Part shown: in pieces, positions 21,373 through 64,000 of the stretch
Layout: each line of letters opens with the position of its first letter
Position numbering within the stretch: the stretch's first letter is position 1
Source: Azolla caroliniana
Lineage: Eukaryota; Plantae; Polypodiophyta
Assembly (NCBI GenBank): GCA_043228905.1
Contig: JBHGNT010000011.1
Span: 12,958,001 to 13,022,000 of the forward strand
DNA: 64,000 nucleotides
Reading direction: 5' to 3'
Position numbers and translations under genes: made by a program
The notes under the pieces: generated by a model
The model's input: only the letters and a program-made list of their open reading frames with translations
Told to the model about the DNA's origin: nothing
Database searches by the model: none

Positions 21373-21388
21373 TTTCTGTGTTAACCTC

Positions 21389-21400
21389 GCTCTGATACCA
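21389..21400 (-). promoter_or_regulatory. PBS (tRNA-iMet) of E
   Basis: Perfect TGGTATCAGAGC, 3 nt inside the 5' LTR boundary. Confidence 0.95.
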
Positions 21401-22634
21401 CTTTGTTGAAAAAAACCGTGCTCGGCCACAACCGAGGAATAGGATCAACTCACAGAAAACAGGAAATACACAATGCACGAAGGCAATAGAGAGAAGAGTG
21501 CACAGGATGTTTTACGTGGAAAACCCTAAATGGGAAAAAACCACGGGAGTCCTCAAAACTCCAACTGAAACTATGAACAGAGATGTACAATGGTGAAGCT
21601 ACAAGGCAACAACCTTGAGCTCACTGTCTTAGCCACAGGCGACGGTAATACACAGAGGCAACGACCTCTTCGTCTCTCTCTCTCTCTCTCGGCTGCTCTC
21701 TTCACTCTCTCTCGGTGAAAACAGAACACATGAGCAGCAACATAAAACTGTTTGCCCTAAGTCATATTTATACACATATGACTTTCCGGCTATTTACAAA
21801 TATAGCCACAAGGGCCCTTGGCAAACATATTCACAAATATGTCCCCGCATCCGGATCTCTCTCCGGGTACATACATCATCCGGCTCCGTAGCCGGGTCTT
21901 CGTCATCCGGCTCCGTAGCCGGGTACTCTTCATCCGGCTTCATGCCGGGTACTCCTCATCCGGCTTCATGCCGGGTACTCCTCATCCGGCTTCATGCCGG
22001 GTACTCTTCATCCTCCGGTTCCGTAACCGCAACCGGGCTTGCCGTCATTCATCTCCGGACATCCCATCCGGAGGGACCGTAAATCCCAACAAGTAGAAAG
22101 CCACCCCCACCGACCTTGAGCTCCCGTAGCGTTATGTTGGTGAACCGGTGCCCTATGCCAGCCGGATTCCGTAAACTTGGGTCCGACGCGACCCCTTTTA
22201 TCCACTCCTCGCTTCCCTCTGGCAAGGGTGCCGCGATTGGCCTCACCTTCCGGTCCACAGTCTTGTACTTTGTATCCACGCGGGCCGTCCGATCCGACCC
22301 GATCCTTTCCCCGAAGTCCGCGATGACTTCGTACATTCCCATCGAACTAACCGGAACGGTCCATCTTCTCTAAGGTCTTCACCGATCACCTTTCGCAACT
22401 CGCCCAAGGTGTCGTCAAGAGAGACTGCCTCCACGGCGCCGCTGATTTCTTCGTTGGGGGAGAGGACTCCGCATCCCCTGAGGCGCTCCTTCGCTTGCTT
22501 CCTCTCCCGGCCGCTGACGCCGGCTATAGTACAACCTCCGTTTTCGGAGAACCAAAACTTCCTACCTATTGTACATGTGTGGGGTTCTTCTGGTACGTCC
22601 GGACTACCGCGGCCCCACGCCTTGATAGCTCTCT

Positions 22635-30208: not shown

Positions 30209-33200
30209 CCGCCGAAACGATACCCCAGAGCTCGCGTTTAACCTGGGCGTATCCTCGTTGTCGCTCGCTGAGGACCTTCGCGCCGTACCGGATCAGGAAA
30301 CGCATGCCGTCCTCGTCCTCTTGGTTGACGACCCATCCGATCCCAGTTGGACTCGTGTCTATCGTTACGTAAATTGGAGTGTCCTTTCCGTACACAGCCT
30401 TTCGGAGCGCCGGAGCTGCGGCAAGTGCTTCCTTCATCTTTCGGACAGACTCCGTATGCTCGTCTCTCCACTCGAATTTTCGCCCCTTTTCAGCAACCCG
30501 TATAACGGCTCCACGACGTGAGCGTAATGCGGGATCCATATGTGGTAGAACGTGCACGCTCCCAAGAACCTCCGAACCTCCATGACCGAGCTATAGTCGT
30601 CCTTCATCGCGGAGATGGCTTCTACCTTAGCCGGAGACGGTTTCCGGCCGAACGACCCGCATAGGTGTCCGACGACCATGATCTCTGATTGCCCGAAGGC
30701 CGATTTCCCCCCGGAGAAGGTGAGCCTCGCGCCCTCCAACCTCTACAACACCTTCTCGCAGTCATCGATGTGCGTCGCCACGAATTTCCGGCACCCGTCC
30801 GGTCCGATCGTCTCGTCCTTTTCCTCCACCGGGCATCCCTTGATTGGGACGTTGTCCAGAAACGGCATGGTGATTTCCGGGATACAATCCCTCAGCACCT
30901 TGGTCATTGCGTTCACCATGTGAGCCACCGAGTTTGTCCCTCCTTGTGGATAGGGTACACATCCGTACTAGGCCGAGAGGAGTTCGCATTGTCGCGATGT
31001 CTCTGCTCTCTATGGCTAGCCGAGTAGAGATCACCGCATATGTCCCTCCTTATCGTACCCCGAGTAGAGATCACCGACCGAGTAAATCGACCTTCCGGCG
31101 AAGGCCTCCGCGAACTCGTTTATTGTCGGTCCGATTCCTGCGTTTCGAATGGTCACCTTGTTGACCGGCTGCAGGTCTTGAATAAAGCGCAGCGTGCCGT
31201 CCTTCTTCGGCACGGTAAACCACCGATTCGAGTATGGGGCACTCGATGGTTCGAGGATGCCCATCTTGACCTTCTGCTTTAACAGCTCCATCAGCTTCGG
31301 GATGTGAGCTCTGGGTACTGGAATTGGTTTGAGACTCCACGGCACATGCGGTACCATGAATATCACCATCGGTTCCACGACTGTCGGGTCTACGCACCCG
31401 ATCTCCTCTGGTGAGAATGCGAAAGCCTTCCCGTGCCTTCCGAGCATTCCCCGAAAACGGTCCTCTTCCGCCAGCAGTAGGAAGCCGCCCCCAACTATTT
31501 TGAGCTCACGTAGTGTTATGTCGGTGAACGTGTGTCCTATGCGGGCCGGATTTCGTAAACTCGGGTCCGACACAACCCCCTTTATTCGCAACTCGTTGCC
31601 CTCCGGCAAGGGAGCCGTGACTGGCCTCACCTTCCGGTCCACAGTCTTGTACCTCGTGTCCACCCGGGTCGTCCGATCCGACTCGAGCCCTCTACTAAAG
31701 TCCGCGATGACTTCGTACATCCTTTCCGAACATATCGGAATCGTCCGGTCCTCTTTAAGGTCTCCTCCGACTACCTCTCACAGCTCCCCCAAGGTATCGT
31801 CGAAAGAGACCGCCTCCATGGCTCCGTTGATTTCCTCTCGAAGGCCAAGGATACCACATGCCCGAAGTCGCTCCTCCGCCCTTTTCTTCTTCCGGCCAAC
31901 AACGTCGACTATCGTACACCCTCCGTTGTCGGAGAACCAAAATCTCCTACTTATAGTACAGGTCTTCTTCGCTATTGTACACTTGTGGGGTTTTCCCGGA
32001 GTGTCCGGACTATCGCGGCCCCATGCCTTGATAGCCCTCTCTAAAAATCCTCTCGGCTTTCGCCCCCGAGGGTCTCGCGGTTCCACTCATGGCTCGGTCT
32101 CACCGTCAAGAACTGGACCGAGTGACGCCCATCCTGGCTCTTGACCCTTGCATAGGCCGAGCCGTTGTCTAGCACCTTGGTCTCCATCCGTGCTGCCGTG
32201 ATGTACGGTTCTCCTAGTATAACCGGATGTGAGGACGTCTCCTGCACGAAGAAGTGCTGGTCAATCTCGACATCGCCGATCTTTACTCGTACATTCGGGT
32301 AGGCTCCATGCAATTCTTCGGTGGCACACGTCGTTGCTCGTATTTTCCACCCGTGCTTGGTGTTGATCGGCCATTTCCCCTTTTGTAGAAGTCCATGGAC
32401 ATCAAATTGATTTCTGAACCGTGGTCCACCAACGCCACCACTGGTTCATGAACATCTCCGATCTTCACGGGGGTCTCCGCGGTCGCTCTGGCCCAGTGCG
32501 GCCTCGAATAGTGGCTCTCCACCAACTCGTCTTCCAGCGCCATGTCCTCTATGTGCGTCATCCGCACCTCCACCGGCTTCTCCGGTTCTGTCTCCGTCGA
32601 CAGCCTCTTCCTCTTCACCAAGTCTACGATGGAGTCGTGGAACTCTTTCTTGGCGATCCCGAGCACTTCCCTCAGCGACAGTTCCACCTTGTTGTCGAGG
32701 ATTCATTCTTCCAGGACCTTTCGCAGGTTCGTGGATCTTTCGATTTTCGTGCCCAGCCGGTACCTGCCCCTCTTGGGATTATCCTGGGCGCCGGTTACGT
32801 CGGCCTCATTCCGCCATTCCCCGAATCGAGTTTCATATCGTTGCGAGGGCCCGGCCCCTCCGGTTTTCCCTACCCGCTTGTCCTCCACCAGAGCCTTGTA
32901 GTTTTGACAAGCGTCTTTGACGAAGGCTGTCTTTTCTTCCACCGGGTCAGTCCACCCAGTTACCTCCCGGACCCGTTTTTCCGCGCGGTCCGACTCTTCT
33001 TTCCTTAGTCGTGTGCCGGCGAGGCCTTCTAGCATCGTCGGCCAGAACCCGGCTTTGTTCGTCTTCGGGGCCTCGCCACTTCCGACCCAAATACCAGCTA
33101 ACGCCGAGTAGCGGACGGTCTCCGCGTGACAAGCCGCCGCCTCCTCCATTAGCCTTTTCATACCCCCTCGCCCGACGTTCAGGTTCAGGGCCCTTTGGGT

Positions 33201-35776: not shown

Positions 35777-35842
35777 GGATTTTTAGAGAGGGCTATCAAG
35801 GCGTGGGGCCGCGATAGTCCGGACACCCCGGAAAAACCCCAC
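35777..35842 (+). promoter_or_regulatory. Putative -1 frameshift signal of G (slippery heptamer plus pseudoknot)
   Basis: GGATTTT 35777-83, TAG, stem 1 35790-97/35813-20, stem 2 35803-08/35837-42. Confidence 0.78.
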
Positions 35843-37033
35843 AGATGTACTATAGGCAAAAATACCTGTACCATAGGTAGGAAATTTTGGTTCCCCGATA
35901 GCGGAGGTTGTACGATAGCCGGCATAGTTGGCCGGGAAAAGAAGCGGGCGGAGGAGCGACTTCGGGCATGCGGAGTCCTCGACCCTGAAGAGGAAATCAA
36001 TGGAGCTGTGGAGGCGGTCTCTTTCGATGACACCTTGGGGAAATTACGGGAGGTGTTCAGAGAAGGCCTTAATGAGGACCGAACAATTCCGGTGTGTTCA
36101 GAAAGGATGTACGAAGTCATCGCCGACTTCGGTAATGGACTCGAGTCGGATCAGATGGCCCGAGTGGATACGAAGTACAAGACTGTGGACCGGAATGTGA
36201 GGCCGGTCGTGGCACCCTTGGCGGAGGGCAGCGAGTTACGGATAACGGGGGTCGCGTCGGACCCAAGTTTACGAGATCCGGCCAGCATAGGACAAATGTT
36301 CACCGACATAACATTGCGGAAGCTCAAGATTGGTGAGGGTGGCTTTCTACTGCCGGCGGAAGAGGACCGGTTTCGGAGAATACTCGGGAGGCACGGGAAG
36401 GCTTTCACATTCACGGTACCGCATGTGTCGTGGAATCTCAAACCGATTCCGGTACCCAGAGCTCACATCCCGAAGCTGATGGAGCTACTGAAACAGAAGG
36501 TGGAGATGGGCATCCTCGAACCGTCAAGTGCCCCATACTCGAATCAGTGGTTTACCGTGCCCAAGAAGAACGGCACGTTGCGCTTTATTCAAGACATGCA
36601 GCCAGTCAACAAGGTGACCATTTGGAACGCAGGAATCGGACCGACCATAGACGAGTTCGCGGAGGCCTTCGCCGGAAGGTCGATTTACTTAGTCGGTGAT
36701 CTGTACTCGGGGTACGATCAGTTCCAACTAGCCGTGGAGAGCAGGGACATTACGATGATGCAGACCCATGTCGGCCTAGTGCGGATGTGTACCCTCCCGC
36801 AAGGAGGGACAAACTCAGTGGCCCACATGGTGAACGCAATGAACAAAGTGCTGAGGGATTGTATCTCGGGCATCACCATGCCATTCTTAGACGACATCCC
36901 GATCAAAGGATGCCCGACGGGGAAGAGGATCAAAGCATTCAAAAAGCGGCACGAGGCTGAACCGGGCCCGGACGACCTAGATAGCGACACTAACCGCCTC
37001 GGAAAGGATGTCAATCCGGAAGACGAAGGATAA
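35777..37033 (+). pseudogene. pol: Gypsy G pol: RT N-half fused to the last integrase residues
   Basis: ...PFLDDIPIKGCP|TGKRIKAFKKR. Confidence 0.88.
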
Positions 37034-41640: not shown

Positions 41641-43666
41641 CTTCACTATCCAGACACAACCATGATCACCGGTTGTGTAGGAGAAGAAGCATTTCCGATC
41701 CGGTGTCAAGTGGAACGACGCTCCGGAATCGACAACCCACGTTGTCTTGTCGCCGACAAGGTTTAACTCATTCTCCTTGGTAATGAGCATAAGTTCCTCT
41801 TCACTTGTCACAATTGCCGACGTTCCTTTCCGATCCGGGCCTCTCCGGTCCGAACCGTTTCGGTCCGCACTCTTCTTCGAATCGGTAGTGCAGGTTTCTT
41901 TCTCTTTCCAGAAATGCCGACAGTTCTTCTGGAAGTGCCCCGACTTCCCACAATAGAAGCAGGTAGGCCTCCCCCTTGACTTCGACCTCATCCCTGATTT
42001 GTCCAGTTTTGGGGACTTTGATACCGGCCTCTTCCCCGGTTGTGGTCATCTTTCGTGACCACGGCCTTCGGATCGGTTCTAGACTCTTGGTCCTTCCAAC
42101 GAGCTTCTTAATCTAGCAAGCTTGATTTTACCCTTGCTAGGGACAACTGTTTTCCTTCCGGCCCAACGTTGCCCAACGTGACAACTAGCGTCTCCCAGCT
42201 ATCCGGGAGGGAACCGAGCAGGAGTAATGCGAGTACCTCATCGGTGAGAGGTAGTTCCAACGAGGTGGCTTGATGTATCAGCCCATGGAAAGCATTCATG
42301 TGATCTGCCATACTAGAGTCGTCTTGGTACCGGAGCCTCACTAACTTCCGGTGTCGTGAAGAAAATCGGCCATAGGCGGAATTGGACGAAAAGGCGCATG
42401 AACCGGCTCTTACACAGATGGACGCGTGAATTGATATTTTGATAAGGATTCATAAATGGATCGGTTGATGTAAATACTAAGTAGTACACAGTTATTAGGG
42501 GGATTGTGCGTATCTCTCTCAGAAGGGACAGGGAATAAAGTGATTTGACTAGGGAAAAAGGGGCACCCCCTTTTGGGAACTATTTACGGAAAGGAGAGAA
42601 GGAAGAGAGGAGATCGCGTGTTGGGGAGGAGGAAGTGCTGCTGCAGAACTGAGTGCCGAGCTCTCTCTTCTCCTCCGATCGTCGGTCTCTGTGGGGTCGG
42701 GAGTTCACTACCTCTGATTCGTGGACAGCCCGTGCGCTTCCAGTAGAGGCTCTCCCCTTTTCGTTTCTTTGAGTCGGGTGGATTCCGTCTGTGTGCGTGA
42801 GTAGGGTCCCCCCGTGTCCGGCCCATCGCCGGCTTGCCAGTTGTAACCGTCGGAGTTTGTAATCTCTTGTTATTGTAATTAAGTGTTCCGTTCTTTATCT
42901 CTCCTTCTCGCTTCTACATGTCTGCGAAACTCTCACTCACTCTCTCTCTCTCTCGCTCCTCGGTTCAAGGCCCCCGTAGTCCTGCCCTTCTACACGCACG
43001 TGCGTAACAACGCGACATATTTTGTGAACCCGATGTGAAAGGGTGGCAAAGGAGTCGAAAGATGAGGGGATCGGAGCCAGCAGAGGCAATGGCCGTAGCC
43101 GTCGACCGGCTGGTAAGCGCGCTCGTGAGGGGACGGTGTCGTGAAGAATGTGCTTCACGATATAAAAATGAGCTTAAATGTTGTATTTAATAATATTTGA
43201 AAGACTTGAACCCACATCCTTATATACGATGTACAATGTACATACCACTAGGCTAGGCTATTTATTTGTAAAAGTGTGTAATAAATGTGCTTCATGATAT
43301 AAGAATGAAGCTATATATTGTATTAAGTAAAATTGAGGGACTTGAAGCCTCAACCTTGTATACCAAGCACCAAGCCATGCATTTTCATCATTATACTTAT
43401 CCCATATCTATTTTCATACATAGCCATCATTCATCACATGCAATGCATGTGCGCCAAATGGCGATCATACATTACATGTAACTCATGCATTGCATGCATG
43501 CCATACTCCCATACATTACCATATGCATGGCAACACTTATATAAAGAGGGGCAAGGAAAACAAGAAAGGAATCAAGAGAGAGTGGGAAAATAAGACAATC
43601 AAGTAGAGAAGACTAGCTCATTGGGTGGAGAACCTCTCGTTTCGAAGTTGAGGTCGTGGGTTCAAA

Positions 43667-46129
43667 GCCGTCGACAATATTCTCACACGAGTAGGAATCT
43701 TCGAAGGTATAAATTTAACAAGATTTCTGAAGATTTATAATGAAGAAATGCTTAAACGCGGTGTCGACGAAGCTGCAAAAATTAATAGCTTTAGTTGAGT
43801 CGTTGCGATTGGGCTACAAGAAAGGATTCAGGAGCTACAGAGGGAACATCAAACATGGGTGACTTTCAAAAGAGCATTGCTAAATGAATACAACCTCAAC
43901 GATATGTCAAGGATGACAAGGCGAGCCTTCATGGATTGGGTAGATTCTAATAAACATTTAAGTGTTTTGGAAGTATTAAAAGAGTTTACTGAAAGATTTG
44001 AGCAACTAAATGTTAGAGATAGAAATATAATAGTGCCAGATAAAGTCATATTGTTTCTACAAGCTACTAATATTAAAGACAAGAAGGACTTGGGAATGCT
44101 TTTAGAAGATCATAATAGTCCAAGTGGACTTACTGAAGACTGGGAGGAGGTGAAAAGGGCGTGTGCCCATTTCTGCAAAAGAAAGTTATGGTTTATGGAG
44201 TTGCCCGACAGAAATGATGAAGAAACAGGGAACGAGTCGAGAGAAAAGAAAGTAGAAGAATCACTCCTACAAGAATTGGTGAAAGGCATGAAAGACTTGT
44301 CGATCAAAGTGATGAAGTTATAATCAGGACAAAGCTCGACTTCATCAAGGCAGGGAGCTGGAATGGTCCGAAGGTGTATGTGGTGTGATAGTATCGACCA
44401 CCAGAAGAAAGATTGTCAAGAGCATAGGGATGCTCTTAATCATAATAAAATCCACTATCAAGAGGGCAAGATTCACTCGACAGAGACTCGACAACCACTT
44501 CAACTCAACTTCGGGTGAGGAGGAATGAAAAAGCTAATGGAAGATGCCGAGAGAGAAATGACTCAAGCGATACAATCCGTGGCAACCTTAGGGTTGCGCG
44601 TAGAAGACTCATATGGTGGATCTGGCTTTTGGCAAGATGTGATGGATTATGCAAGAAAAGGGAAGGTTCAAGTGAATGAATTAAAAAGAGCGGGAGATGA
44701 AATACGAAACTTCACTGGATGGAATGATCCAATAGATGCGCTATAAGCATTCGCCCAAGTGAATGCACAAGATGTGCTAGTGGAAGAGAAGCGGAAGAGA
44801 GTTGAGGAAGCTGATCCGACAAAGAGACATGAGACACGAGAACAGAAGAGAAGGGAGATGGAAAAGGGTGCTACTGAGCCGAAGGAAGTTGATAAAGTAA
44901 AAGGAAAGACAGGCTCATCTTTCAAGCTTGCCTCAGATATAGAAACAATGACGGATATAAAAAAGGTACTAGAAACAAGAATACTAAATAGTAAGGTAGA
45001 ATTTACTTTAAGAGAAGTGTTGGGTATAGCAAAGAAAGAATTTCGTGAAGTTATCATAGATATTATTAGAAGGAAGAGACAGGTGACGGAGGAAATTACG
45101 GGAGGGTGTGCAACAACACTCCAAGATTTGTATGGTGGCACCATTAATGCTGCAAGTGTAAAAAACCAGAATGATGTTGGCATCCATGAAGGGGATAGGA
45201 GTCACTATACAAGGGACCTTTGGGCTCGAGCAACAACGGAGGCACCTGCAAAAATTGGGGAGCAGCAAATTCCATGTATTGCTTTGATCGATCATGGATC
45301 CGAGATTAACATGATGTCATCAGAATTTTACGCTTGAGGACGGTGGCCGATTGACAAGAATCATGGGTGGAAAATAAGAGCTGCCACAGAGACTACGGAG
45401 GATCCATTTGGAGCATGTCCTAGTGTGCAGGTAACAATTGGTGATGTGTCGGTGAATCAAAATTTCTTTGTGCAGGATCGATCAACCTACCCCATCATCC
45501 TTGGTCAGCCCTACATCACGATCCGGATCGGAGGTAACTAGACCCCTATGCATCTGGACATGATGGTGGTGACATGGAGGAGAGGGATCCGTTTTCGGTT
45601 CGGTGCCGGCTGAATGGCGGCCAGGCCTGATAGTCTTTATCTATCCCAAAGTTCACCACCTCACGGCCTTCATGATGAACCGGTTCAGCGGAAATGGTCG
45701 AGATGTCTCACTAGCTTACGGACGTGATAAATCTCAATGTCCAGTCCCAGCACGGCACTGGCTAGGTTGGTCCAGAGTTGCTTGAGGAAGCGAATCCAGT
45801 CAGGGTTGAGAGACTTGAATTCACTGGTGATCTGAACTTTTACATTCACACTCTTCCCCAATCTCAGCTGAAGGCATCAACGAGATCTTTCTGTCTCTTT
45901 TATCCACATACTCTAGGTTTCTACTGAACCTCTGAATTATTTCCTGACCGCAGTGAGGATGGAAACAAAGGTTATTGATGATGGTTCGGCTTTCGCGAGA
46001 ATCAAGAGTCAAGATGGAAGAAAGACTGTCCAATTCTTAATTGTGAGGCCCAACCATGAAAGAAACAAAGAATGCTTGAGGGAACATCCAATTCAAGAGA
46101 TGGATGAAGAGTTTTCCCAGGATTTTTAG
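43667..46129 (+). pseudogene. gag: Gypsy K gag-protease (5'-truncated, stops, 429-bp insert)
   Basis: CMWCDSIDHQKKDC, ALIDHGSEIN, ILGQPYIT|AVRMETKV, ends QDF*. Confidence 0.88.
45521..45949. other. 429-bp foreign insertion in K protease, origin unknown
   Basis: Splits the conserved PYIT|A.RMETKV; no LTR, TIR, TSD or polyA seen. Confidence 0.8.
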
Positions 46130-46177
46130 ATAGGGCTTTTACAGGTAGGGGTTGTGATAACATAAAAGAAAACCCCA
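46120..46177 (+). promoter_or_regulatory. Putative -1 frameshift signal of K
   Basis: G GAT TTT TAG; -1 frame open for 69 codons into ORF 46327; GGGGTT/AACCCC pairing. Confidence 0.75.
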
Positions 46178-49100
46178 TAAATAATAATGTAAATAAAGAT
46201 ATTCCTTGTACAATCTCATCTAATGGTGCTACTTTTATACTAAAAGTAAATAATAATAAAATACAAAATGCTTTCGAGTACTTTAAGTGTTTTGGATTAA
46301 TAGATGATGATGAAGAAATTCAGGATATGTTTGAAGAATTAAGTTTTGAAGATACAATAACTCATTTGGAAGCAATGGCAGAAGACAACGAAATCCAAGT
46401 TCCTGTCCATTCAATCAAGATGTACGAGGTCATTGAAGAAGTTGCTCGAAAGGATCATGAAGCACATGTACTAACAAAGTACAAGACAGTGGAGAAGAAG
46501 GTTCGTCCTATTGCTGCTCCACTTCCAGGGGATAGTGAAAAGGCAATCAAAGAAGTAGCCACAGAGCCAATGATCAGAGACCCACGAAAGGTAGGACATG
46601 TGTTTACTCCGGAAACAATACAAGGGATGAAAATAGGAGGGGGTGACTTCCTATTACCCGCTGAAGAAAAGCAGTTTAGGGAGATGTTAAAAAGGCATGG
46701 AAAGGCGTTCACATTCCAACCGAAGGAAATAGGGTGTGTGGATCCAGAAATTGTGGAGCCCATGGTTATATTCACTATCCCTCATATTCCATGGAACTTT
46801 AAGCCAATACCCATGCCTAGGGCTAGAATCCCTCAACTATTAGAACTTTTGAAAGAAAAGATAAGGATGGTTATCTTGGAACCATCGAACGCTCCTTACT
46901 CGAGTCGATGGTTCACTGTGTTAAAGAAAGATGGGCGACTCCGATTTATCCAAGATATGCAACCCGTGAATAAGGTAGCAATCCGAAACTCGGGAGTAGG
47001 GCCAATTGTGGATGAGTTTGCTGAGATGTTTGTAGGAAGAGCTATATATTCAATGGGAGACCTTTATCCCGGGTATGATCAATTTCAACTTGCTCTCAAA
47101 AGTCGAGATATAACTTCTATCAAGACACCTATAGGGTTAGTACGGATGTGCACCTTGCCGCAAGGAGCGACCAACTCAGTGGCGCATATGATGAATGGAA
47201 TGAACAAGGTACTTCGTGATTTTATTCCTCATATTACAATGCCTTTTCTAGATGATGTTCCAATTAAGGGATGCAAGGAGGAAGAGAAGAACGAGGAATT
47301 GGATGAAAGTGGTTGCCGTCAATTTGTTGCTGATCATATCAAGGATTGTGAGAAGGTGCTATCAAGGATGGAAGAAATGCATTTGAACTTATCAGGGGTG
47401 AAGTCAATATTTGGGGCAAAAGAGATCTTAATAGTTGGTCATATGTGTGGCCCGTACGGGAGAAAGCCATCCCCAGCCAAGGTCAATGCAATTCAAAATA
47501 TGCAAGAGGAATGTACATTCGTCTCAGAAGTACGAAGGTTTCTGGGGGTATGTGTTTTTTACTGTAAATGGATTTCGCATTATGCCCATTTATCTGAAAC
47601 TTTATATAGACTCCTAAGAAAAGGAGAGACATTTGAATGGAGTGAAGAGCATTCAAAGGCAATGAAGAGATTGAAGTACTGCTTAGCACAAGCTCCACCA
47701 TTAAAGCAACCTGACTACACCCGACCCATATATCTCACAGTAGACTCTAGTCCCATTGGAATTGGATGGGTGATAAGCCAACAAGATGGGGAAGAAATGT
47801 ATCCAGTCCGATTCAGAGCAAAGGTTCTTAGTGGTCGACAAAGAAAATATGCACAGGTGAAAAGAGAGCTATGGGGGATAGTAACAGCAGTAAAGACAGA
47901 CAGAGATTACTTAATTGGTGTTGAAGTAATAATAGAAACAGATTGTTTGCCTATTCTTGGTATCATAGCTAATTGTGATATTCCAAATCAAGCCATGTTA
48001 AGATGGTGTATCTATATTAGATCAGTCAACCCTGAAGTTCGACATATCTCTGGGAATAGAAATGCAGTAGCAGATATGTTATCAAGAGCAAGGTATGAGG
48101 AAGAGGAGATTCCAGACTCGGACGATGAGGAAAAAGAACAAACAGCCCTTACCACAAGCATTACCCGGGAAGGAGGAATGTAGTTTCTAGAAGAGGAGTA
48201 TGAAGAAGAATTCAAGGAAATAGGGAAATACCTACAAACCCCTGACAAGTACAAAGGTCGATCTAAAAAAGAGTTCACACAGTTTCGCAAGAAAGCCCAT
48301 AAGTTCTTCCTGCATGAAGGATATCTATGGCGACATCTGAAAACCAAGACTTGAAACCCGCAAAGAGTAATAGGTTCTGAAGGGCAAAGAAAGGAGATAA
48401 TCAGAGAGCTACATGACAAAGAATGGGCTGGTCATCGAGGAGTGTGGGCCACTTTCAGTAAGATTAAAGAACGATTTTGGTGGCCTCGATACTATGAGCA
48501 AATAAAAAAGTATGTGGAAACTTGTCCCACTTGTCAATATTATTCAAACGTAAAATTTTGTGATGAATTACACCCAACATACTCACCGAGGGTGCATTAC
48601 AAGTGGATGATAGATTTGGTAACAATGCCACTTGGAGTAGGACAAAATAGATACTTGGTTCTTGCTAGAGAAGATCTAACAAATCAAGTGGAAGGCCGTT
48701 CATTGCGAACAAAAGGGACATTAGGAGTATGTCAATTCATCTTGGAGGACATTGTTTGTAGATATGGATGTATCGGGAAGATAGTGGCAGATAGGGGAGA
48801 GCTCAATTTTGCGGAAGCTCAAGATTTTTTCGACAAAATAGGAATTTGGCTTTCTTTGACAACGGCGTACAATCCAGAAGCTAATGGAAAGGTAGAAAGG
48901 GGACATGGGCCAATAGTCAAAGCTTTGGCAAAGGCATGTAGAGGACGGGTCAGTGATTGGCAAAGGCATGCACTATGGGCTGATAGGACAACTCACAGCA
49001 CTGTTACTGGATTTATGCCTGCAGAATTAATCACAGGACAGAAGCCAATAATGTCAATTGAAGAAAAGATAACTACATGGGTTGTGTTGCCTTGGGAATC

Positions 49101-49569
49101 GGAAATGAGTAGGGAAGATTTACTTGCGGTTCGAATACGACAACTTCAATCAAGGACAGAAGACATAGAAAAAGCAGCTACTAGATTGAAAGAGGCAAGA
49201 ATCAAGAATAAGGACAGGTTTGACAAGATGAAAAGAATACAACCAAGAAAGGTGCAAGAGGGAGATTGGGTATTAGTATATGATAGTAGCCTAGATAATC
49301 AATACAGTACTATTCGGAAGTTTGCAAAAAGATGGTTTGGACCTTATGAAGTTAGGAAAATAACAGATAAAGCCACATATTTCCTCAATGAATTAGATGG
49401 GACAGAAATTCGTATCCCAATTGCAGGAAAAAGGATTAAAATATTTAAAAGGAGGGAGTCATTAGAGCCCGAATTTTATGAAGAAGTAGAAGAACTAAAA
49501 GAATCGGAAGAAGTGTTGGATGAACTCTGCACAACCAATGTGCAAGTTCAGAGGGGGTGGGTGTCGTGA
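46120..49569 (+). pseudogene. pol: Gypsy K pol (RT, RNase H, integrase), two in-frame stops, no chromodomain
   Basis: LPQGATNS, FLDDVPIKG, VDSSPIG, GHRG..CPTC, DRGE, WFGPY; stops at 48181 and about 48352. Confidence 0.92.
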
Positions 49570-50036
49570 AGAATGTGCTTCACGATATAAAAATGAGCTT
49601 AAATGTTGTATTTAATAATATTTGAAAGACTTGAACCCACATCCTTATATACGATGTACAATGTACATACCACTAGGCTAGGCTATTTATTTGTAAAAGT
49701 GTGTAATAAATGTGCTTCATGATATAAGAATGAAGCTATATTGTATTAAGTAAAATTGAGGGACTTGAAGCCTCAACCTTGTATACCAAGCACCAAGCCA
49801 TGCATTTTCATCATTATACTTATCCCATATCTATTTTCATACATAGCCATCATTCATCACATGCAATGCATGTGTGCCAAATGGCGATCATACATTACAT
49901 GTAACTCATGCATTGCATGCATGCCATACTCCCATACATTACCATATGCATGGCAACACTTATATAAAGAGGGGCAAGGAAAACAAGAAAGGAATCAAGA
50001 GAGAGTGAGAAAATAAAACAATCAAGTAGAGAAGAC

Positions 50037-50091
50037 TAGCTCATTGGGTGGAGAACCTCTCGTTTCGAAGTTGAGGTCGTGGGTTCAAATC
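50037..50091 (+). promoter_or_regulatory. tRNA-like Pol III A-box/B-box module in K LTR (second copy 43614-43666)
   Basis: TAGCTCATTGG and GGTTCAAATC at tRNA-like spacing. Confidence 0.55.
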
Positions 50092-50263
50092 AAGGGTCGG
50101 TATTGAAAAGATTCATCTTACGATCAAGGATTGTAAAGTTGGTAAAATTTTAAAATTTTAAATATACATCATGTTTATATCATATACTCTTGTTTCTAGA
50201 ATCATACTTTGTCTCAATCTTCTTTCTTGAATCATACATTGTCTCTATCTTTTATCTATGCTC

Positions 50264-50264
<1 letters not shown>

Positions 50265-50352
<88 letters not shown>

Positions 50353-50355
50353 ACA
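50265..50355. repeat. (TC)n(AC)n compound microsatellite in K 3' LTR
   Basis: Read directly. Confidence 0.95.
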
Positions 50356-50492
50356 TTACTCGTAACTCTTCGTCTTACTATCCTTAACCATTCTATCATC
50401 ACCATACAAGCCTTATTAAAAGTTAAGTTTCTTCAACTCCCCTTAACCTTAGTCCCTGCGACTTCGCCGCACGAACCACAACTACCCCGACA

Positions 50493-53238
50493 ACGGGTAC
50501 CCTCGACAAAGCCATTGAATCGATCGTCGGCACTATAGGCCGGTTCGGAGGGAAAGACGCCACAAGTTATTTGGAGGCTTACCGGGCCGAAATGATCATG
50601 AGGGATATCCCGGTGGACAGGCGGTTGTCCAGATTCCCTCGGGTGGTGATGTCGGGCATCCACGCGGAGGTGCTCGAGGTGTTGGCCAGATGCCAGACTT
50701 GGGAGGAGTTCGAGCTACAGCTCCTCGAGAAGTACGGGTTTGACGACTCGCTTCAGCTGTCGAGGAGGGACTTCATGGCGTGGGTGGAAAGCCCCGGAAA
50801 AGGGAGGAACACGTCCTTGCTCCTCCAGGAGTTCGAAAAGCGGTTCACGCAGCTGTCAATGCTGGACTGGACGGTGCTTGAAACGAGTCGAGTACTACTG
50901 TTTGTCAAGTCAGTGGACACGCTCGACAGGGAAAGGGTGGGTCCCTTATTGGAAATGGACGAAGGGCTCATGGCAGACTAGGCCGTGGTAAAACGGGCCT
51001 GCAACCGTTTCGACAAACGGCACGATTGGAGCAACGGAAGCTCGTCGGGGTCAGGGCCGGTCCCGGCGGGGAGGCTCGAGGAGCCGATATCGGTGCAAGC
51101 TGGCAGGAAGGAAGAGACCCGAAATTGGCTAGAGGCCCATCCGGAGGAGCGGCTCTGGAGGAGCTAACACAAATGGTGCGTGACCTGCAGATCGCACAGG
51201 CACGAAGAGACAGCGGCGAACAACCCCGCGACCGAAGGCCGCCAGCTAGGCAGCGGTGCATGTGGTGTGACGCGATTGGTCACATTCGGAAGGATTGCGC
51301 GGATTTCGCCGACACGCTCAAGTCCAACGTGGTGTACCTTTGGAACGAGCGGGTGCATGCGAGCGAGACCCGGAGAGCCCTAGAACTAAATACGGGGCGC
51401 GGCGGAATTAAGAGGCTAATGGAAGAGGCCGCAGCACAGCATGTAGAAGTCGTTAACTACACAGTGTCGGCAGGAATTCGGGTCGGGGGTGATGAGTCCC
51501 GGAAGGTGAAGGACTCCGGATTCTGGCCACTAGTGCTCGAAGGCTTCTCCGGAGTTCGGCTGAAGAAGGAAGAGGCAGACCACGCGGAACAGTGGGTCCA
51601 GGAGGTCACCGGATGGGACGATCAGGTCGAAGAGAAAATAGGCTTCGTAGAAGCCACTTGCCAGAACTACGAGGTTCTGGTGGAAGACAAACGAGTAGGA
51701 AAGGCCGGGGGGATGGGTTCCCCGCAGAGGTACGAGACCCGGTTCAGACCGAAACCGACCGGTGCCAGCAACCCAGGCGCGCCGGACGGAAAGAAGCAGA
51801 CAGGGTTTAGGTTGAGCACTGAAATCGAGAGAGCAACGGACCTATGGAAGGTCCTTGAAGAGCGGATCCTCAACAGTAAAGTGGAGTTGTCGTTGCGGGA
51901 GGTGCTGGGAATCGCCAAGAGGGAGTTCCATGACTCCATCGTAGACTTGGTGAAGCGGAAGAGGCTCTCCATGGAGCCAGAACCGGAGAAGCCGGTGGAG
52001 GTGCGGACTACGCACTTAGAGGACGCGGCCCTAGAAGACGAGTTGGAGGAAAGCCACTACGCGAAGCCGCATTGGGCCAGGGCAACTACGGAAACCCCTG
52101 TGTGGATCGGCGACGTTCCGGAACCAGTGGTGGCCTTGGTAGACCATGGATCCGAAATCAACCTGATGTCCATGGATTTCTGACAGGAATGCACGCTCCC
52201 TTTTCCACAACACTCGGCCACAACTGAGTCTAAAATCGAACACAGAAAACGGATAATGAACGCACGACACAAAGGAGAGAAGAGTACACAGGATGTTTAA
52301 CGTGGAAAACCTTGAGAGGGAAAAACCACGGGAGTCCACAGACTCCAAACTATCACTATATCACAATGATTACAATAGTGAGCTCACAAAGGCAATGACC
52401 TCCTGCTCACGATCTTCGCCAAAGGCGGCGGTTACAACAGAGGCAATGACCTCTTCCTCTCTCTCTCTCTCTCTCTCTGTACACTTTTACGCGCTCTCTA
52501 GTCTTGCATCAACAAGAATGACAACATACATACAAATTTTGCCCTAAGTCATATTTATACTAATATGACTTTTCGGCTATTTACAAATATAGCCCCGATG
52601 AACTCTCAGAAACATATTTACGAATATGTCCCTTTATCCGGCGAGCACTCCTCACCGGGCTTGCATCATCTGGTGCTTGCCGGGCACACGACATCCGGTT
52701 CTCACCAGGTCTTCACCATCCGGCTCTTGCTGGGTACTCGTCATCCGGTTCTCACCGGGTCCTCCGTAGTCGGGTACTCGTCATCCGGTTCTCACCGGGT
52801 CTTCCATTGCCGGGTACTCCACATCTGGTTTGGTCATCAGTATTTTTCTTCTCACTTCCCATCCGGAGGGACTTGTTTCCTAACAATTTCTACAAGAAGG
52901 GTAAATGGCCGATCAACACCAAGCACGGGTGGAAGATACGCGCAGTGACGCGTGCTACGGAGGAGATGCACGGTGCGTACCCAAATATACGCGTAAAGGT
53001 CGGTGACGTCGAGATAGATCAACATTTCTTCGTGCAGGAAACATCCTCGCACCCGCTAATTCTTGGAGAACCATACATTACGACAGCACGCATGGAGACG
53101 AAAGTGTTCGACAACGGTTCGGTGTACGCGCGCGTCAAGAGCCAAGACGGTCAGCATTCCGTCCAATTCATGACCGTACGTCCGAACCATGAGAGGAATC
53201 ACGAGACCCTCAGCGCCGGGAGCCGAGGGGATTTTTAG
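50493..53238 (+). pseudogene. gag: Gypsy J gag-protease (starts 43062, split by K and L)
   Basis: CMWCDAIGHIRKDC, ALVDHGSEIN, ends GDF*. Confidence 0.88.
52181..52885 (-). mobile_element. Solo LTR L (B family), perfect TSD ATTTC
   Basis: ATTTC at 52176-52180 and 52886-52890; TGACAGG...CCTAACA. Confidence 0.93.
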
Positions 53239-53294
53239 AGAGGGTTATCAAGGCGTGGGGCTGCGGTAGTCCGGACGTACCGGAAGAACCCCAC
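53229..53294 (+). promoter_or_regulatory. Putative -1 frameshift signal of J
   Basis: G GAT TTT TAG; stem GGGTTATC/GGTAGTCC; GTGGGG/CCCCAC; -1 frame open for 70 codons into ORF 53439. Confidence 0.75.
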
Positions 53295-56200
53295 ACATGT
53301 ACAGTAGGTAGGAAGTTTTGGTTCTCCAAAAATGGAGGTTGTACTATAACCGGCGTCAGCGACCGAGAGAGGAAGCGAGCGGAGGAGCAGCTCAGGGGAT
53401 GCAGAGTCCTCTCCCTCGACGAAGAAATCAGCGGCACCGTGGAGGCGGTCTCTTTTGACGACACCTTGGGCAAGTTGCAAAAGGTGATCGGGGAAGACCT
53501 TAGAGAAGACCGGACCATTCCGGTTAGTTCAATGGGAATGTACGAAGTCATCGCGGACTTCGGGGAAAGGATTCGGTCGGATCGGACGGCCCACGTGGAT
53601 ACAAAGTACAAGATTGTGGACCGGAAGGTGAGGCCAGTCGCGGCACCCTTGCCAGAGGGCAGCGAGGAGTGGATAAAAGGGCTCGCGTCGGACCCAAGTT
53701 TACGGAATCCGGCTGGCATAGGGCACCGGTTCACCGACATAACGCTACAAGAGATCAAGGTTGGTGAGGGTGGCTTTCTACTGCCGGCGGAGGAGGACAG
53801 GTTCCGTAGAATGCTGGGAAGGCATGGGAAAGCCTTCGCGTTCTCGCCAGAGGAGATCGAGTGCGTGGACCCGACGATCATCGAACCGATGGTGATCTTC
53901 ACGGTACCGCATGTACCGTGGAATCTCAAACCGATTCCGGTGCCGAGAGCTCACATCCCGAAGTTGATGGAGCTTCTGAAGCAAAAGGTGGAGATGGGCA
54001 TCCTCGAACCGTCGAGTGCCCCGTATTCGAATCGGTGGTTTACGGTGCCGAAGAAGAACGGCACGTTGCGCTTCATTCAGGACCTGCAACCGGTCAACAG
54101 GGTGACCATCCGTAATGCAGCAATCGGACCGACCATAGACGAGTTTGCGGAGGCCTTCGCTGGAAGGTCGATTTATTCGGTCGGTGACTTATACTCAGGG
54201 TACAACCTGTTCTAGTTAGCCGTGGAGAGCAGGGATATCACGACGATGCGAACCCCTCTCGGCCTGGTACGAATGTGTACCCTACGACAAGGCGGGACAA
54301 ATTCGGTAGCGCATATGGTGAACACAATGAACAAGGTACTCAGGGACTGCATCCCGGACATCACCATGTCATTCTTGGACGACATCCCGATAAAGGGGTG
54401 TCCGATGGATGACGCGGATGAGACTGTCAGGCCAGACGGATGCCGGAGGTTCGTCGTGAACCACATCAACGACTATGAGAAGGTGTTGTAGAGGCTCGAA
54501 AAGGCACGACTCACCTTCTCCGGAGAAAAATCGGCGTTCAGACAATCGGCGATCTTGGTGGTTGGACACCTGTGCGGGCCTTACGGTAGAAACCGTCTCT
54601 GAAAAAGGTAGAGGACATCTCCGCGATGAGGGACGATTGTGGGTTGGTCACGGAGGTCCGCAGATTCTTGGGAGCGTGCGTGTTCTACCACATCTAGATT
54701 CCGCACTACGCGCATGTTGCAGAGCCTCTCTACAGGCTATTGAAGAAAGGGCGTGGGTTCGAGTGGAGGACGGAGCACACGGAGTTGGTCCGGAGACTAA
54801 AGGAGGTGCTTACGGTAGCGTCGGCCCTCCGTAAAGCGGTTTACAGCAAGGGTGTCCCCATTTGCGTGACGGTGGACACGAGCCCGACCAGGATCGGGTG
54901 GGTAATTCGTCAGGGGGACAAGGACGGCGTACGATTCCCAATCCGGTTCGGGGCAAAGGTATTAAGCGAGCGGCGGCGAGGATACGCCCACGTTAAGGGC
55001 GAGCTTTAGGGTATCGTTTCGGCAATCAAGGCCAACAAGGACTATCTGATCGGGACGGAGGTGACCATCAAGACGGATTGCCTGCCGATACTCGGCATGG
55101 TTTCCGGATGCGCGACGCCGGACTTAGCAATGCTCCGGTGGATAGCGTACATTAAGTCCCTGAACCCGGAGATACGGCACATCTCCGGAAAGGACAACGC
55201 CATGGCCGACATGCTTTCGAGAGCGAGGTTCAACGACGAAGACGACATGGTTTCGGATGACGAAGAAGTCGGCGAGGACTTCTTCGGGTCGGCTAACGTA
55301 ACAGCGAGGAAAAGGGACACTCCGGCGCTTAACGAATTTGACGAAAGTAGGTACAACAGGAAGTGGCTCCAAATCGGGAGGTTCCTACGGACGATGACGC
55401 CGGACGTAGCATGGACGAGAGAAGAGGCGAGCCGGGTACGGAAGAAGGCGTACCGATTCTTCCTGTGGGACGAGCGCATATGGAGGCACCCAAAGAAGAG
55501 AAACGGCATCCTGCTCCGAGTAGTGGCAAAGAAAGAAGAACAAGAGGAACTACTGGCAGCATTTCACGAGAGTTCTTGGGCCAGGCACCGCGGAACGTGG
55601 GCCACATTCGAAAAGCTGAAGGAGAAGTACTAGTGGTCGGGGTTGTACCAGGACGTGCATCGGTTCGTAATGACTTGTGAAAATTGTCAAATGCACTCCG
55701 TAGTCCGACATCGGGACGAGCTACACCCAACTTACCCGCCTGCGGTTCATTTCAAGTGGATGGTGGACTTGGTGACGATGTCGATGGGAGTAGGACAGAT
55801 GCGATACTTGGTGCTTGCGCGGGAAGACTTAACGAACCAGGTGGAAGGGCATGCACTGCAGAACAAGACAACCGCGGCGGTATGCCGGTTCTTGATCGAA
55901 GAGGTAGTGTGTCGGTACGGGTGCGTCAAGAGGATTGTCGCACCCGGGGAGAGCTGGATGCGCGCGAAGCTGAGGAGCTGTTCGACCAGCTGGGCGTCAA
56001 ACTCTCCCTCACTACGGCGTACAATCCGGAGGCGAACAGGAAGGTAGAACGTGGGCGCGGGCCGATCGTAAAGGCGTTGGTGGGTGCATGCGGAGGGCAG
56101 GCCAGGAATTGGCCGCGGCGCCTTCCTTACGCGCTATGGGCAGACCAAACTACACACAATTCGGTGACAAGGTTTATGTCGGCTGAGCTGATGTACGGAC

Positions 56201-59824: not shown

Positions 59825-62800
59825 TGACGGGAACTATACGCTCCTTCTACGCAACGCTTGGCCACAACCGAGCTTAGAATCATACACAGAAAATGGGAAA
59901 TAAAACGCACGACACAAAGAAGAGAAGAGTACACAGGATGTTTACGTGGAAAACCCAAACTAGGGAAAAACCACGGCAGCCCACAGGCTGCAAACTATCA
60001 CTATGCTAGAATGTACAACAGTGAGTTCACGGAGGCAACGACCTCATGCTCACGATCTTCGCCACAGGCGGTGGTTACAACAGAGGCAGCGACCTCTTCC
60101 TCTCACTCTCTCTCTCTCTGTACACAGTTACACGCTCTAATCTCGCACAGACAAGAATAACAACCAACGTCTAAAAGATTGCCCTAAGTCATATTTATAC
60201 TAATATGACTTTTTCGGCTATTTACAAATATAGCCATGATGGACTCTCAAAAACATATTTACGAATATGTCTCTTCATCCGGTTCTCACCGGGTCTGCAC
60301 CATCCAGCTCTTCGTAGCCGGGTACTCCTCATCTGGTTCTCACCGGGTCTGCACCATCTGGCTCTCCGTAGCCGAGTACTCCTCATCCGGTTCTCACCGA
60401 GTCTGCACCGTCCGGCTCTCCATAGCCGGGTACTCCTCATCCGGTTCTCACCGGGTTTGCACCATCCGGCTCTCCGTAGCCGGGTACTCCTCATCCGGTT
60501 TCGGCCTCGGCCGAGTTTGTTCATCAGCACTGTTCTTCTCCCTTCCCATCCGGAGGGACCTGTCTCCCAACAAACTCCCCCTTCACTCCGGCATGGGGTG
60601 TCTTGCTAATCCGATCCTCTTCCGGCATGCATCCAGCTTGTTGGGTATCAGCACTTTGGTCAGCATATCTGACCCGTTCTCGGCCGTGTGGATCTTCGTC
60701 AGTGCGAACTCCTGGTCATCTACTCTTTCCCGGATCCAGTGATACCTTCGTTGGATATGCTTCGTCCGGGAATGATAGGCCGCATTCTCAGCAAGGTGGA
60801 TGGCACTTTGACTGTCGCAATAGAGTCGTTATTCATCTTGCCGGATACCGAGCTCTCCGATGAAGTCCTTCATCCATAATATTTCCTTGCCGGCTTCCAC
60901 AGCCGCCATGTACTCCGCCTCCGTGGTTGACAATGCAACCGTCTTCTGCAGCCTCGACTGCCACGAAACAGCTCCCCCTGCATATGTCATTACATACCCG
61001 GATGTAGACCGGCTGGTATCCACATCAGCTGACATGTTCGAATCGGTAAAACCGTCAAGTTGAGGTTTTCCGGAGCCGAATCGGAGACACATATTTGAAG
61101 TGCCCTTCAAATACCAGAGTATCCATTTGACCGCGTTCTAGTGCTCCTTGCCGGGATTGCTCATAAACCGGCTCACCACTCCGACTGCGTATCCTATATC
61201 CGATTGGGTACACACCATTGCGTACATTAACCTCCCGACGGCAGAGGCATATGGAATCTTCATCATATCTGCCTTCTCTGCTTTCGTCTTCGGGCTTTGC
61301 TTACCGGATAACCTGCAGTTTGCCGGAAGTGTCGATCCGACCGGTTTCGCATCCGACATGTTGAACCGGTGAAGCACCTTTGTCACGTACTTCTCCTATG
61401 ACAGCCATAATTGCTTCACTGACCGGTTCCGGATAATGTGCATCCCCAGCATCTGCCTTGCCGGACCCAAGTCTTTCATTGAGAAGGTCCGGTTGAGAGC
61501 CTTCTTCAGCATTCGTATTTTGACTTGGTCCCGTCCGACGATCAACATGTCATTCACGTACAGAAGGAGTATCAGGAAGTCGCCTCCTTCAAACTTCTTC
61601 ACAAACACGCAGTGATTGGTCTGCGTCTTGTGGTACCCTTGATCGGCCATGAAGGAGTCGAACTTCCGGTACCATTGTCGTGGAGCCTGCTTCAACCCAT
61701 AGAGGCTCTTCTTCAACCGGCAAACCAAGTGCTCCTTCCCTTTCTCCACAAATCCTTCCGGTTGTTGCATGTAGATCTCCTCTTCGAGGTCGCCGTGAAG
61801 GAATGTCGTCTTCACGTCCAGCTGTTCTACCTCGAGGTCCATGCTTGCTGCTATACTCAGCACCGTCCAGATGGAGGTCATCTTTACTACCGAGGCAAAT
61901 ATCTCGTCGAAGTCCACGCCCTTCTTCTGCTGGAACCCCTTCACCATGATCCTGGCTTTGTATCTCGGGGGGTTGCCGGCATCTCCCGGTTTCAACTTGT
62001 ACACCCACTTGTTTCGGAGTGCCCGCTTTCCTTTCGGCAACTCCACCAATTCGTACGTATGGTTCTCATGCATGGAATCCATCTCATCCTACATGGCACT
62101 TAACCATTTGCGGTTATGGGTGTCATCCTTCGCTTCTTCGAAGCTTTCCGAGGCGCCCTTCTCTCTCTGAGAGGATATCTCCGTCTTCGGGCTTCGGTAA
62201 CCGGCTCCTCCATTTGGCCTTCATCCGAATCCGATTCGGGGTCTTGGCCGGTTCCGGTTTCAGCTTCCTCTACTTCTTCTTCAGCCTGTTCGGTATCCTC
62301 ACCGTAACCGGTTGGTCCCTCGAGTGTTAACCGGTCTCTTGCCGGTTGAGTCTGCTCATCGTAGAATCGATCCTTACCGGTCGACTCGGAGTTCATTATC
62401 TTCTTCTCCGACTCCCAATCTGCGAGCGGCTTGTCCTCCATGAAGATGATATCTCGACTCCGGAATACCTTCTTGTTGACCAGGTCCCACACTCGGTAGC
62501 CGAACTCATCGTCACCGTAACCGAGGAATATGCATGGCCGGGTCTTTGGATCTAACTTTCCTCTCCAATCCTTAGCTACATGCACATACGTGAGACACCC
62601 GAACACCTTCAGATGCCGGTAGGATACTTCCTTACCGGTCCACACTCTCTGTGGCGTGTCTCCGTCCAAGGTAAATTCGAGCCGGATTCCCTTCGAGCGA
62701 CAGTACTCCTCGAACTGCCCCCGGTATTCACCTCCGTTATCTGCTCGAACCGCCTTCAGCTTCCGGCCGATTTCTCTTTCCACTCTCGCATGGAGCTCTT

Positions 62801-63328
62801 TGAAGACGGATAGCACCTGATCCTTCGTCTTCAACAGTGTGGCCCACAGCTTCCGGCTGTGGTCATCAATGAACGTCACGAAGTACTGTGCTCCGGCATG
62901 TGACTTCGTGTCTACTTGACACACATCCGTATGCACCAACTCCAGTGGTGCATTACGTCTCATCGGTGGCCTTGGTAGGAAGGAGGTCCGGTTTTGCTTA
63001 CCGACCAGACAATCAGTGCACTTCTCCAAGTGCACATTCTTCACTGGAATGAGGTTGTCGTCTGCAAGCCTCTTCATCCCCTTCTCGTTCATATGACACA
63101 GCCTCTTATGCCACAGCTCACCGGCAATGTCGAATGCCACGTTCACTTCTTCCGGACATAACCGGGCATTCATCAGGTACAGTGTGTTGACCTTCCGGGC
63201 CCGAGCCACAATCAGGCTCCCTTTGCTGAACTTCATGACACCGTTCCAGATGCTACCCATGTAGCCTTCATCATCTAGCCGACCGGCTGATATCAGGTTC
63301 AGACGAACCTCCGGAACGTGTCGGACAT
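59825..63328 (-). mobile_element. Ty1/copia element O (B family), 3' LTR and pol, inserted in the N LTR
   Basis: LTR 59825-60572, PPT, pol 60583-63328 with stops and small deletions. Confidence 0.9.
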
Positions 63329-63413
63329 TGTAAAAAGCAACGTGCGGAAGCAGGTATGAAGACAGAACAGAGGAAGGAAACTCAGGTTCAATGGAGATCT
63401 TAGGCTTACACAG
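63329..63413 (-). mobile_element. LTR fragment P of a C-family copia inserted in O
   Basis: tgtaaaaagcaacgtgcggaagcaggtatgaagacagaacaga matches 8892 onward. Confidence 0.85.
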
Positions 63414-64000
63414 TGTCGAGGTATTCCTCGCGGATGCGTGGAATGAGGTGGGACCTCGGGGGTCCTGTACCGAAGAGCAAGAGAGAAAGGAGAAGAGACC
63501 CACTGCGTGCGAGCGTAGATTCACAGGGACACGGCCCTTCGACACAAAGACGCGAGTGGGACCACGACATAGAGAGACACGAATGTATGTATGTCTTAAC
63601 AAAGACAAACAATCAAAACACGGAGTCAGTTACAACCGAACAGGCCGGCAAACAGATGCTGATGCCTGTTCGCAAACGCGCAGAAAGGAAGGAGAGGGTT
63701 AGAGGTGCTGCCGGAAGCACTCGGGCATTCCTCAGAGCAGCGCGAGCCTCACGAAACCTGCACAGAAAGAAGCTATGGAGTTTGCGAGCCAGAGAGAGAG
63801 AGAAGCCTTCGCCCACAAACCGACAGCACTTCGTCCTCGACTCTCCGCGATTCCCTCCCCCTTCTCGTCTCCCTCCTTTTATAGGCAAGGAAGGAGCCGT
63901 TTCCCCTTTACTTCCTACCCACTAAATCTACCTACTTCGGATCTTCCATGTCCCTAATTCTTTCTTATGTACAACGTAAGGCGTACGTGCATGAAGAGCC
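63414..64000 (-). mobile_element. Gypsy LTR Q inserted in P, runs off the window
   Basis: Starts TGTCG; shares motifs with D and H LTRs (gaggtgggac..cggggg, cgacagcacttcgtcc, cttttatag). Confidence 0.8.

Follow-up and report, generated by a model that had tools for sequence, protein, structure and literature searches.

A textbook −1 ribosomal frameshift signal consists of a slippery heptamer, a spacer of 5-9 nt and a 3′ structure (PMC7618472; this and all other papers are cited from excerpts of their text). G_GAU_UUU is a tested plant-virus shift site, and a 2003 survey listed only +1 cases for plants, according to an excerpt of PMC5009743. The Phygy lineage of plant long terminal repeat (LTR) retrotransposons is described as 7.66-9.97 kb long and without an additional ORF, with an NCGN 4-bp target duplication and a tRNA-Trp primer site; its open reading frame (ORF) organisation is listed as not determined, and the excerpt names no frameshift signal (PMC6317226). 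Here we analyse a 64,000-nt window of the fern Azolla caroliniana (contig JBHGNT010000011.1, positions 12,958,001 to 13,022,000, forward strand) that contains K, a decayed Phygy-like Ty3/gypsy element. In K, the gag-protease frame ends at a TAG stop codon (46127-29), and the frame for reverse transcriptase, RNase H and integrase (RT-RH-INT) begins at G GAU UUU, offset by −1. Comparison of related sequences indicates that this site is very probably a programmed −1 ribosomal frameshift signal that joins gag-protease to RT-RNase H-integrase in Phygy-like elements of non-seed plants. Its parts, the two frames and the homologous signals in the window are as follows (positions in the window, strand, feature).

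46120..46126, +, slippery heptamer G GAU UUU, the predicted −1 shift site
46127..46132, +, 6-nt spacer, starting with the ORF1 stop codon TAG
46133..46142, +, 5′ arm of stem 1 of the predicted pseudoknot, in the same register as in families G, H and J
46146..46151, +, 5′ arm of stem 2; the pairing part in K is GGGG (46148-51)
46154..46159, +, remnant of the 3′ arm of stem 1; the next 6 nt are deleted in the window copy only
46173..46176, +, 3′ arm of stem 2, CCCC
43664..46129, +, ORF1, gag-protease, with DUF4100 and a retropepsin fold; interrupted by stops and an insertion in the window copy
46120..49569, +, pol in the −1 frame, with a linker of ~120 codons, RT, RNase H and integrase
35777..35845, +, homologous signal in a copy of a GC-rich family
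53229..53295, +, homologous signal in a second GC-rich copy
31982..32050, −, homologous signal in a third GC-rich copy

Most ribosomes would stop behind the site and make Gag-protease (Gag-PR) as the main product. A minority would stall at the knot, with tRNA-Asp and tRNA-Phe re-pairing one base back (on GGA UUU), and continue into Gag-PR-Pol; the shift frequency would set the ratio of capsid to enzyme. We infer these two products by analogy with alpharetroviruses (PMC3185560). K resembles the alpharetroviruses (Rous sarcoma virus and myeloblastosis-associated virus, MAV) in having the protease in the Gag frame, a −1 shift into pol and a pseudoknot as the putative stimulator (PMC5009743, PMC3185560). 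It differs in its unrelated host and lineage, in its heptamer and in the D-H-G protease motif of the K lineage. The alpharetrovirus heptamer is A AAU UUA. With pea enation mosaic umbravirus the K signal shares the heptamer G_GAU_UUU, plant ribosomes and a nearby stop codon, which affects efficiency in the virus; the umbravirus is an RNA virus and its stop codon lies one codon further on (PMC5009743).

A first-pass annotation of the window, made from the letters alone, had pointed to CAG GAT TTT TAG and to a stop-free −1 frame of 207 nt (46120-46326) in a family AT-richer than G, H and J, and all three observations are borne out. The 207-nt stretch has 27.5% GC, ends immediately 5′ of the first AUG and stays free of stops in 4/5000 dinucleotide shuffles; the other frames carry 8 and 15 stops. 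The GC content of K is ~0.39-0.42, compared with ~0.55 in G, H and J. The octamer's four occurrences in the window do not exceed the chance expectation (2.9), and all four lie at the equivalent PR/RT junction. The motif is kept in 30/30 K loci (the top 30 when 40 of 397 candidates were scored), each stop-free over the first 100 −1 codons, with 10 and 16-18 stops in the other frames. K copies without the motif or with stops in the −1 linker, which the annotation had named as refuting its claim, did not turn up among them. These loci are 97-98% identical, so retention of the motif reflects youth more than selection, and the evidence for selection is the comparison between families.

For this comparison, loci were gathered independently of the motif. 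An RT profile found 80 metagenome loci, 18 without protease and 62 spanning both ORFs, of which 59 have pol at −1, two at +1/−2 and one, damaged, at 0. From this genome we took 30 loci by a pol peptide pattern (3,816 matches): 25 are at −1, one lacks the protease and four are at +1/−2 (one in the AG GUU UUU clade discussed below, three resembling damaged GC-rich copies). The whole set comprised 151 junction loci; the 112 intact ones, clustered at 88%, gave 30 groups, or 29 families after a damaged singleton (L201) was dropped. Pol is at −1 in 27/29 families, with G GAU UUY in 24 and G GGU UUU, A AAU UUU and G AAU UUU in one each; the G GAU UUY families match X XXY YYZ with one mismatch in XXX. 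L115 and L118, the two most divergent families, carry an Asn-Phe codon pair at the site (A AAU UUU and G AAU UUU) and a stem 1 block longer by 3 nt. The ORF1 stop codon is directly behind the heptamer in 23 of the 27 −1 families and 1-5 codons further on in four. Heptamer positions carry the modal base in 25-27/27 families (8-18/27 for 14 upstream positions), and such heptamers occur at 45/12,905 other codon positions.

Both sides of the junction are under purifying selection, strongly so before the site. The ratio of nonsynonymous to synonymous substitution rates (dN/dS) is 0.26-0.53 in the linker, read in the pol frame (8 pairs), 0.03-0.10 in the 150 codons 5′ of the site where dS is unsaturated, and 0.05-0.08 in RT between families. 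That the offset is an old decay mutation, carried by elements mobilised with the enzymes of an in-frame master, is extremely unlikely: all 29 families are out of frame, RT is conserved as just described, LTR pairs are 97-100% identical and both frames are open in 8/11 full-length K copies. This explanation would fit the decayed state of the window copy and the decayed frames common in the lineage (PMC6317226). The annotation's claim that conservation across divergent families reflects a selected −1 signal instead of shared decay is upheld by the 29 families, the covariation described next and dN/dS below 1.

Behind the site we predict an H-type pseudoknot. A 31-nt block aligns without gaps in 27 families (two families, 3 nt longer, were left out). 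Stem 1 positions 1-8 pair with 31-24 in 24-27/27 families, with two-sided changes at several positions, and the paired fraction is 0.87, compared with 0.27-0.45 in slid registers. Stem 2 pairs loop bases of stem 1 with a segment 11-16 nt downstream in 25/27 families; on the tree, each of its columns switches pair type 0-10 times. Arm swaps between families reach the real score 0/20,000 times, for stem 1 and stem 2 alike. A best-stem search blind to the heptamer placed the stem 6 nt behind the site in 21/27 −1 families and 5 nt behind it in 2/2 +1/−2 families. The covarying predicted pseudoknot would begin 6 nt 3′ of the −1 site, within the 5-9 nt of a −1 signal.

For K the annotation had paired GGGGUU (46148-53) with AACCCC (46171-76) and proposed a different stem 1, CUUUUA (46136-41) with UAAAAG (46163-68). 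All four sequences are at these positions. Of the first pair, GGGGUU is a minority variant (7/30 loci), and the conserved stem 2 is GGGG/CCCC. The different stem 1 is an artefact of a private deletion, and K shares the stem 1 of G, H and J. The window copy has lost six bases in frame 3′ of 46159, and with them the 3′ arm of the conserved stem 1; the six bases are absent from 1/30 K loci (the window copy), and genome-wide exact matches are 1 deleted versus 80 intact. Where the six bases are present, K forms the G/H/J-type stem 1 at −11.7 kcal/mol. As the main stem, the annotation's candidate was rejected (0.0 kcal/mol in the intact copy, −0.2 in the window copy). Pairing like it is weakly above permutations across families (787/20,000), and it may be a minor alternative fold. 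Single-sequence folding, which is weak evidence, gives the window copy a z-score of −0.49, an intact K copy one of −2.22 and the site at 35777 one of −1.08.

Several points weigh against a −1 signal of this kind. G GAU UUU has GGA for XXX and is an imperfect X XXY YYZ site, and the site rule demanded U at the first wobble position, so that the count of GAU in 24/24 families is partly circular. The blind stem search missed the site in 6/27 −1 families, including K, where stem 2 has just four contiguous pairs, and the permutation tests for both stems ignore relatedness. Before clustering, 39/151 junction loci were removed as damaged or short, and L201 afterwards; many contigs come from one record series, so the 29 families do not equal 29 hosts.

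The variability of the stop codon bears on splicing. Among the 29 representatives it is TAG in 13, TAA in 11 and TGA in 5, with at least 10 changes on the tree, which disfavours a 3′ splice acceptor at TTTTTAG with pol made from spliced RNA. In Ogre, splicing occurs between GAG-PROT and RT and the PR/RT spacer is the intron (PMC6317226), and the K and G/H/J sites do read U5-AG. In the lineage studied here, however, the frames overlap with no non-coding spacer, the 150 codons before the site are strongly purified, and the first AG lies 2-20 nt behind the site, with a phase that changes between families; the Ogre-type combination of a non-coding spacer and a conserved AG acceptor was not found. 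Splicing is thus very unlikely here, even though gene predictors bridge the junction in 15/23 Physcomitrium models by >50 aa. Among related proteins, ORF1 ends at Asp-Phe or within 6 residues of it in 77/81 unnamed proteins, 5/23 from Physcomitrium, 8/12 from Adiantum and 1/4 from Riccia, and many of the remaining named proteins are gene models that run past the junction. Models P0121, P0159, P0173, P0179 and P0187 (Physcomitrium and Adiantum) fuse the protease and the pol linker across the junction. The junction-spanning models likely arise from predicted introns and are annotation artefacts, and a frameshift signal would account for the introns placed there.

Pol might also be started separately, by re-initiation, internal entry or a shorter RNA, with the structure serving initiation, packaging or dimerisation. 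Pol is indeed an open frame of its own (1154 aa), and RNA structures in retroelements frequently serve several roles. The first AUG of the pol frame lies 3-111 codons in, at no shared position, and in the families retained no stop interrupts the frame on the way back to the heptamer. A linker that is purified yet has neither a common AUG nor a fixed AG argues against separate initiation and splicing. A separate start would explain neither the heptamer at a fixed distance nor why frame, site and spacer changed together in one clade, and we regard it as highly improbable. Slippage of RNA polymerase or reverse transcriptase on the U5 run, giving some in-frame transcripts, is most improbable. The run is present, and it is short, further shortened by UUC variants in two families, and followed by a knot at the spacing of a ribosomal signal (5-9 nt, PMC7618472); six-U copies, with 4 genomic matches versus 1,960 for five U, have not spread. 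The six-U copies, four members of GC-rich families, are at C7:17661857, C13:14901091, C15:18495594 and C21:13128046.

Compared with the predicted −1 signal, one clade has a changed frame. Two families, L084 and L099, share a branch (100/99) that is weakly placed as sister to K (82/86). In both, the site is AG GUU UUU, the spacer measures 5 nt, the knot is the same and pol lies in the +1/−2 frame. The clade pattern has 97 matches in this genome; of 30 copies chosen by similarity, the site is kept in 29, and in 27 the pol anchor lies in the +1/−2 frame. Ten full-length copies of this young clade include eight with LTR pairs 99.3-100% identical and four with both frames fully open. Between L084 and L099, dN/dS is 0.057 in the protease, 0.075 in RT and 0.29 in the linker; with dS ~1 in protease and RT, these low values argue that the arrangement was inherited under selection.

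AG_GUU_UUU is the arterivirus −2/−1 site, and −2 shifting works best when the spacer is shortened by 1-2 nt (PMC7618472). The natural −2 cases listed in PMC5009743 come from phage Mu, arteriviruses and Trichomonas vaginalis virus 1. The clade combines this octamer with a predicted product in the −2 frame, although the pol frame reads +1 and −2 alike. Judged by the sequences, the clade probably shifts −2. A +1 shift is possible but rather unlikely. It would have precedents in +1 shifting on UUU at UCC_UUU_CGU (PMC3498833) and in antizyme pseudoknots, which yield +1 or −2 by host and spacing (PMC5009743), and a six-U minority variant (10/97 matches) permits perfect +1 re-pairing. In the majority form, however, +1 puts tRNA-Phe on UUG, whereas a −2 shift allows re-pairing on UUU in either form; the octamer is identical to the arterivirus site, the spacer is one base shorter, and the −1 frame ends after two codons, as in arteriviruses. 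That neither shift occurs seems improbable.

The putative −2 site shares with arterivirus nsp2TF the octamer and the near-immediate stop in the −1 frame (PMC7618472, PMC6675879, PMC8310308). In arteriviruses, nsp1beta and poly(C)-binding protein act on a C-rich motif 10 nt away, whereas the clade has a predicted pseudoknot 5 nt away. The motif CCCANCUCC was not seen 10 nt downstream in the clade sequences inspected, and the pseudoknot occupies its place. The clade may work like an arterivirus site without being a member of that group. We lean slightly towards the view that one lost base turned pseudoknot-driven −1 into pseudoknot-driven −2 shifting on AG GUU UUU within one retrotransposon lineage. 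If true, this would be the first natural −2 shift in a retroelement known to us, a natural test of the spacer-tension model, and a case of convergence on the arterivirus site without protein helpers.

The K lineage appears to be Phygy-like by its target duplication, primer site and relatives; the formal criterion is placement in the Phygy clade of an RT-RH-INT tree. An exact NCGN 4-bp duplication flanks 9/11 full-length K copies (one has a mismatch and one is unmatched) and 6/6 GC-rich copies having an LTR pair. A tRNA-Trp primer site occurs in 17/17 copies with an LTR pair, is deleted from the window copy, and has its complement in tRNA-Trp(CCA) genes (4/4 loci scanned). K shares with Phygy the duplication, the primer and a coding region that fills the interior (PMC6317226), and K is slightly shorter (7.3-7.6 kb versus 7.66-9.97 kb); the GC-rich families are 6.6-7.3 kb and the +1/−2 clade ~7.9-8.0 kb. 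Among the matches listed, the protease relatives with a species name that come nearest are from Physcomitrium patens (56-66% identity), and those from fern and liverworts are at a similar distance. The named relatives listed are from a moss, a fern and liverworts, with no fungal protein among the best 120 of 294 and of 191 matches. Other two-ORF plant Ty3/gypsy elements are Tcn1 and Selgy, in which GAG overlaps PROT-RT, and Ogre and Retand, in which GAG-PROT is set off from RT by a spacer or stop; none of the lineages tabulated in the excerpt of PMC6317226 has overlapping PROT/RT frames.

Literature searches returned no description of the signal and no paper on frameshifting in bryophyte retrotransposons, with subscription papers, repeat databases and preprint supplements outside their coverage; the excerpt of PMC7466625 does not mention frameshifting. 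The mechanism is of a known kind, and what appears to be new is the lineage, the frame-switched clade and, for a plant element, the position behind the protease. The predicted signal supplies a gene organisation for a lineage in which it was listed as undetermined (PMC6317226). Plants would gain an LTR retrotransposon whose −1 signal is of the classical type and lies behind the protease, as in alpharetroviruses. The 29 natural variants of one knot are a ready mutational series, and the sister clade lets switching from −1 to −2 by one spacer base be tested in nature, an effect of the spacer on direction that earlier work has demonstrated with engineered or heterologous cassettes (PMC7618472, PMC5009743).

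The remaining features of the K element in the window are listed below.

43137..50492, +, K element, decayed Phygy-like Ty3/gypsy LTR retrotransposon, as compared with 11 full-length K copies
43133-36 and 50493-96, target duplication ACGG, 4 bp, flanking the element
43137..43663, +, 5′ LTR remnant (blastn against L143)
~45290-98, +, D-H-G protease motif, in ORF1
45520..45946, strand not assigned, 427-nt insertion within the protease, absent from the full-length copy compared
49562..50492, +, 3′ LTR

The window copy is dead, with a deleted 5′ part, the protease insertion and stops in both ORFs. About 430 nt are gone 3′ of the 5′ LTR remnant (the LTR end, the primer-binding site and the gag start), and the first pol stop is at 48181-83 in an open frame that spans 46108-48183. 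ORF1 is 702 aa from the first Met in 10/11 full-length copies, pol is open over 1154 aa in 9/11, and both are open in the eight copies mentioned above, whose LTR pairs are 98-100% identical. Pfam places DUF4100 5′ of the shift site and RT, RNase H and an integrase zinc domain 3′ of it, and the order Gag-PR-RT-RH-INT between LTRs is that of Ty3/gypsy. The protease is weak in Pfam (E 0.17), and sequence searches of the PDB with the K protease gave no match. The last 172 ORF1 residues (stored copy) fold as a retropepsin with a mean predicted local distance difference test score (pLDDT) of 80.9; the best matches in a fold search are Ddi1 and the proteases of xenotropic murine leukemia virus-related virus (XMRV) and human immunodeficiency virus (HIV), with a best E of 6.5e-7. 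The retropepsin fold is inside ORF1, and therefore the frame break falls between protease and RT. As this protease would be produced in a 1:1 ratio to Gag, its activity may be low, like that of MAV protease (PMC3185560). Its motif is D-H-G instead of D-T/S-G in nearly all relatives (alignment A2).

The ends of the 427-nt insertion overlap by 2 nt, and no LTR-like termini were seen. K itself is probably a nested insertion: it starts ~100 nt behind an apparent LTR end that, with its mutated primer site, would belong to a further member of this lineage (43010-43136). The K LTR contains a stretch (43612-43667 and 50035-50090) with D-arm-like and T-arm-like motifs, which we take to be tRNA-like; ARAGORN called no tRNA gene in the window, this stretch included. 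The 5′ deletion of the window copy starts where the tRNA-like stretch ends. Elsewhere in the genome, matches to the tRNA-Trp 3′ pattern are clustered at C8 17.80-17.82 Mb, C16 4.99-5.11 Mb and C5 10.11 Mb; those on C8 are ~1.2 kb apart and are possibly tandem tRNA gene arrays. The window also contains Ty1/copia coding regions at 17299-21444, 6895-8064, 12534-13520 and 62100-63629 (all on the − strand), one of which has an open frame of 1381 aa.

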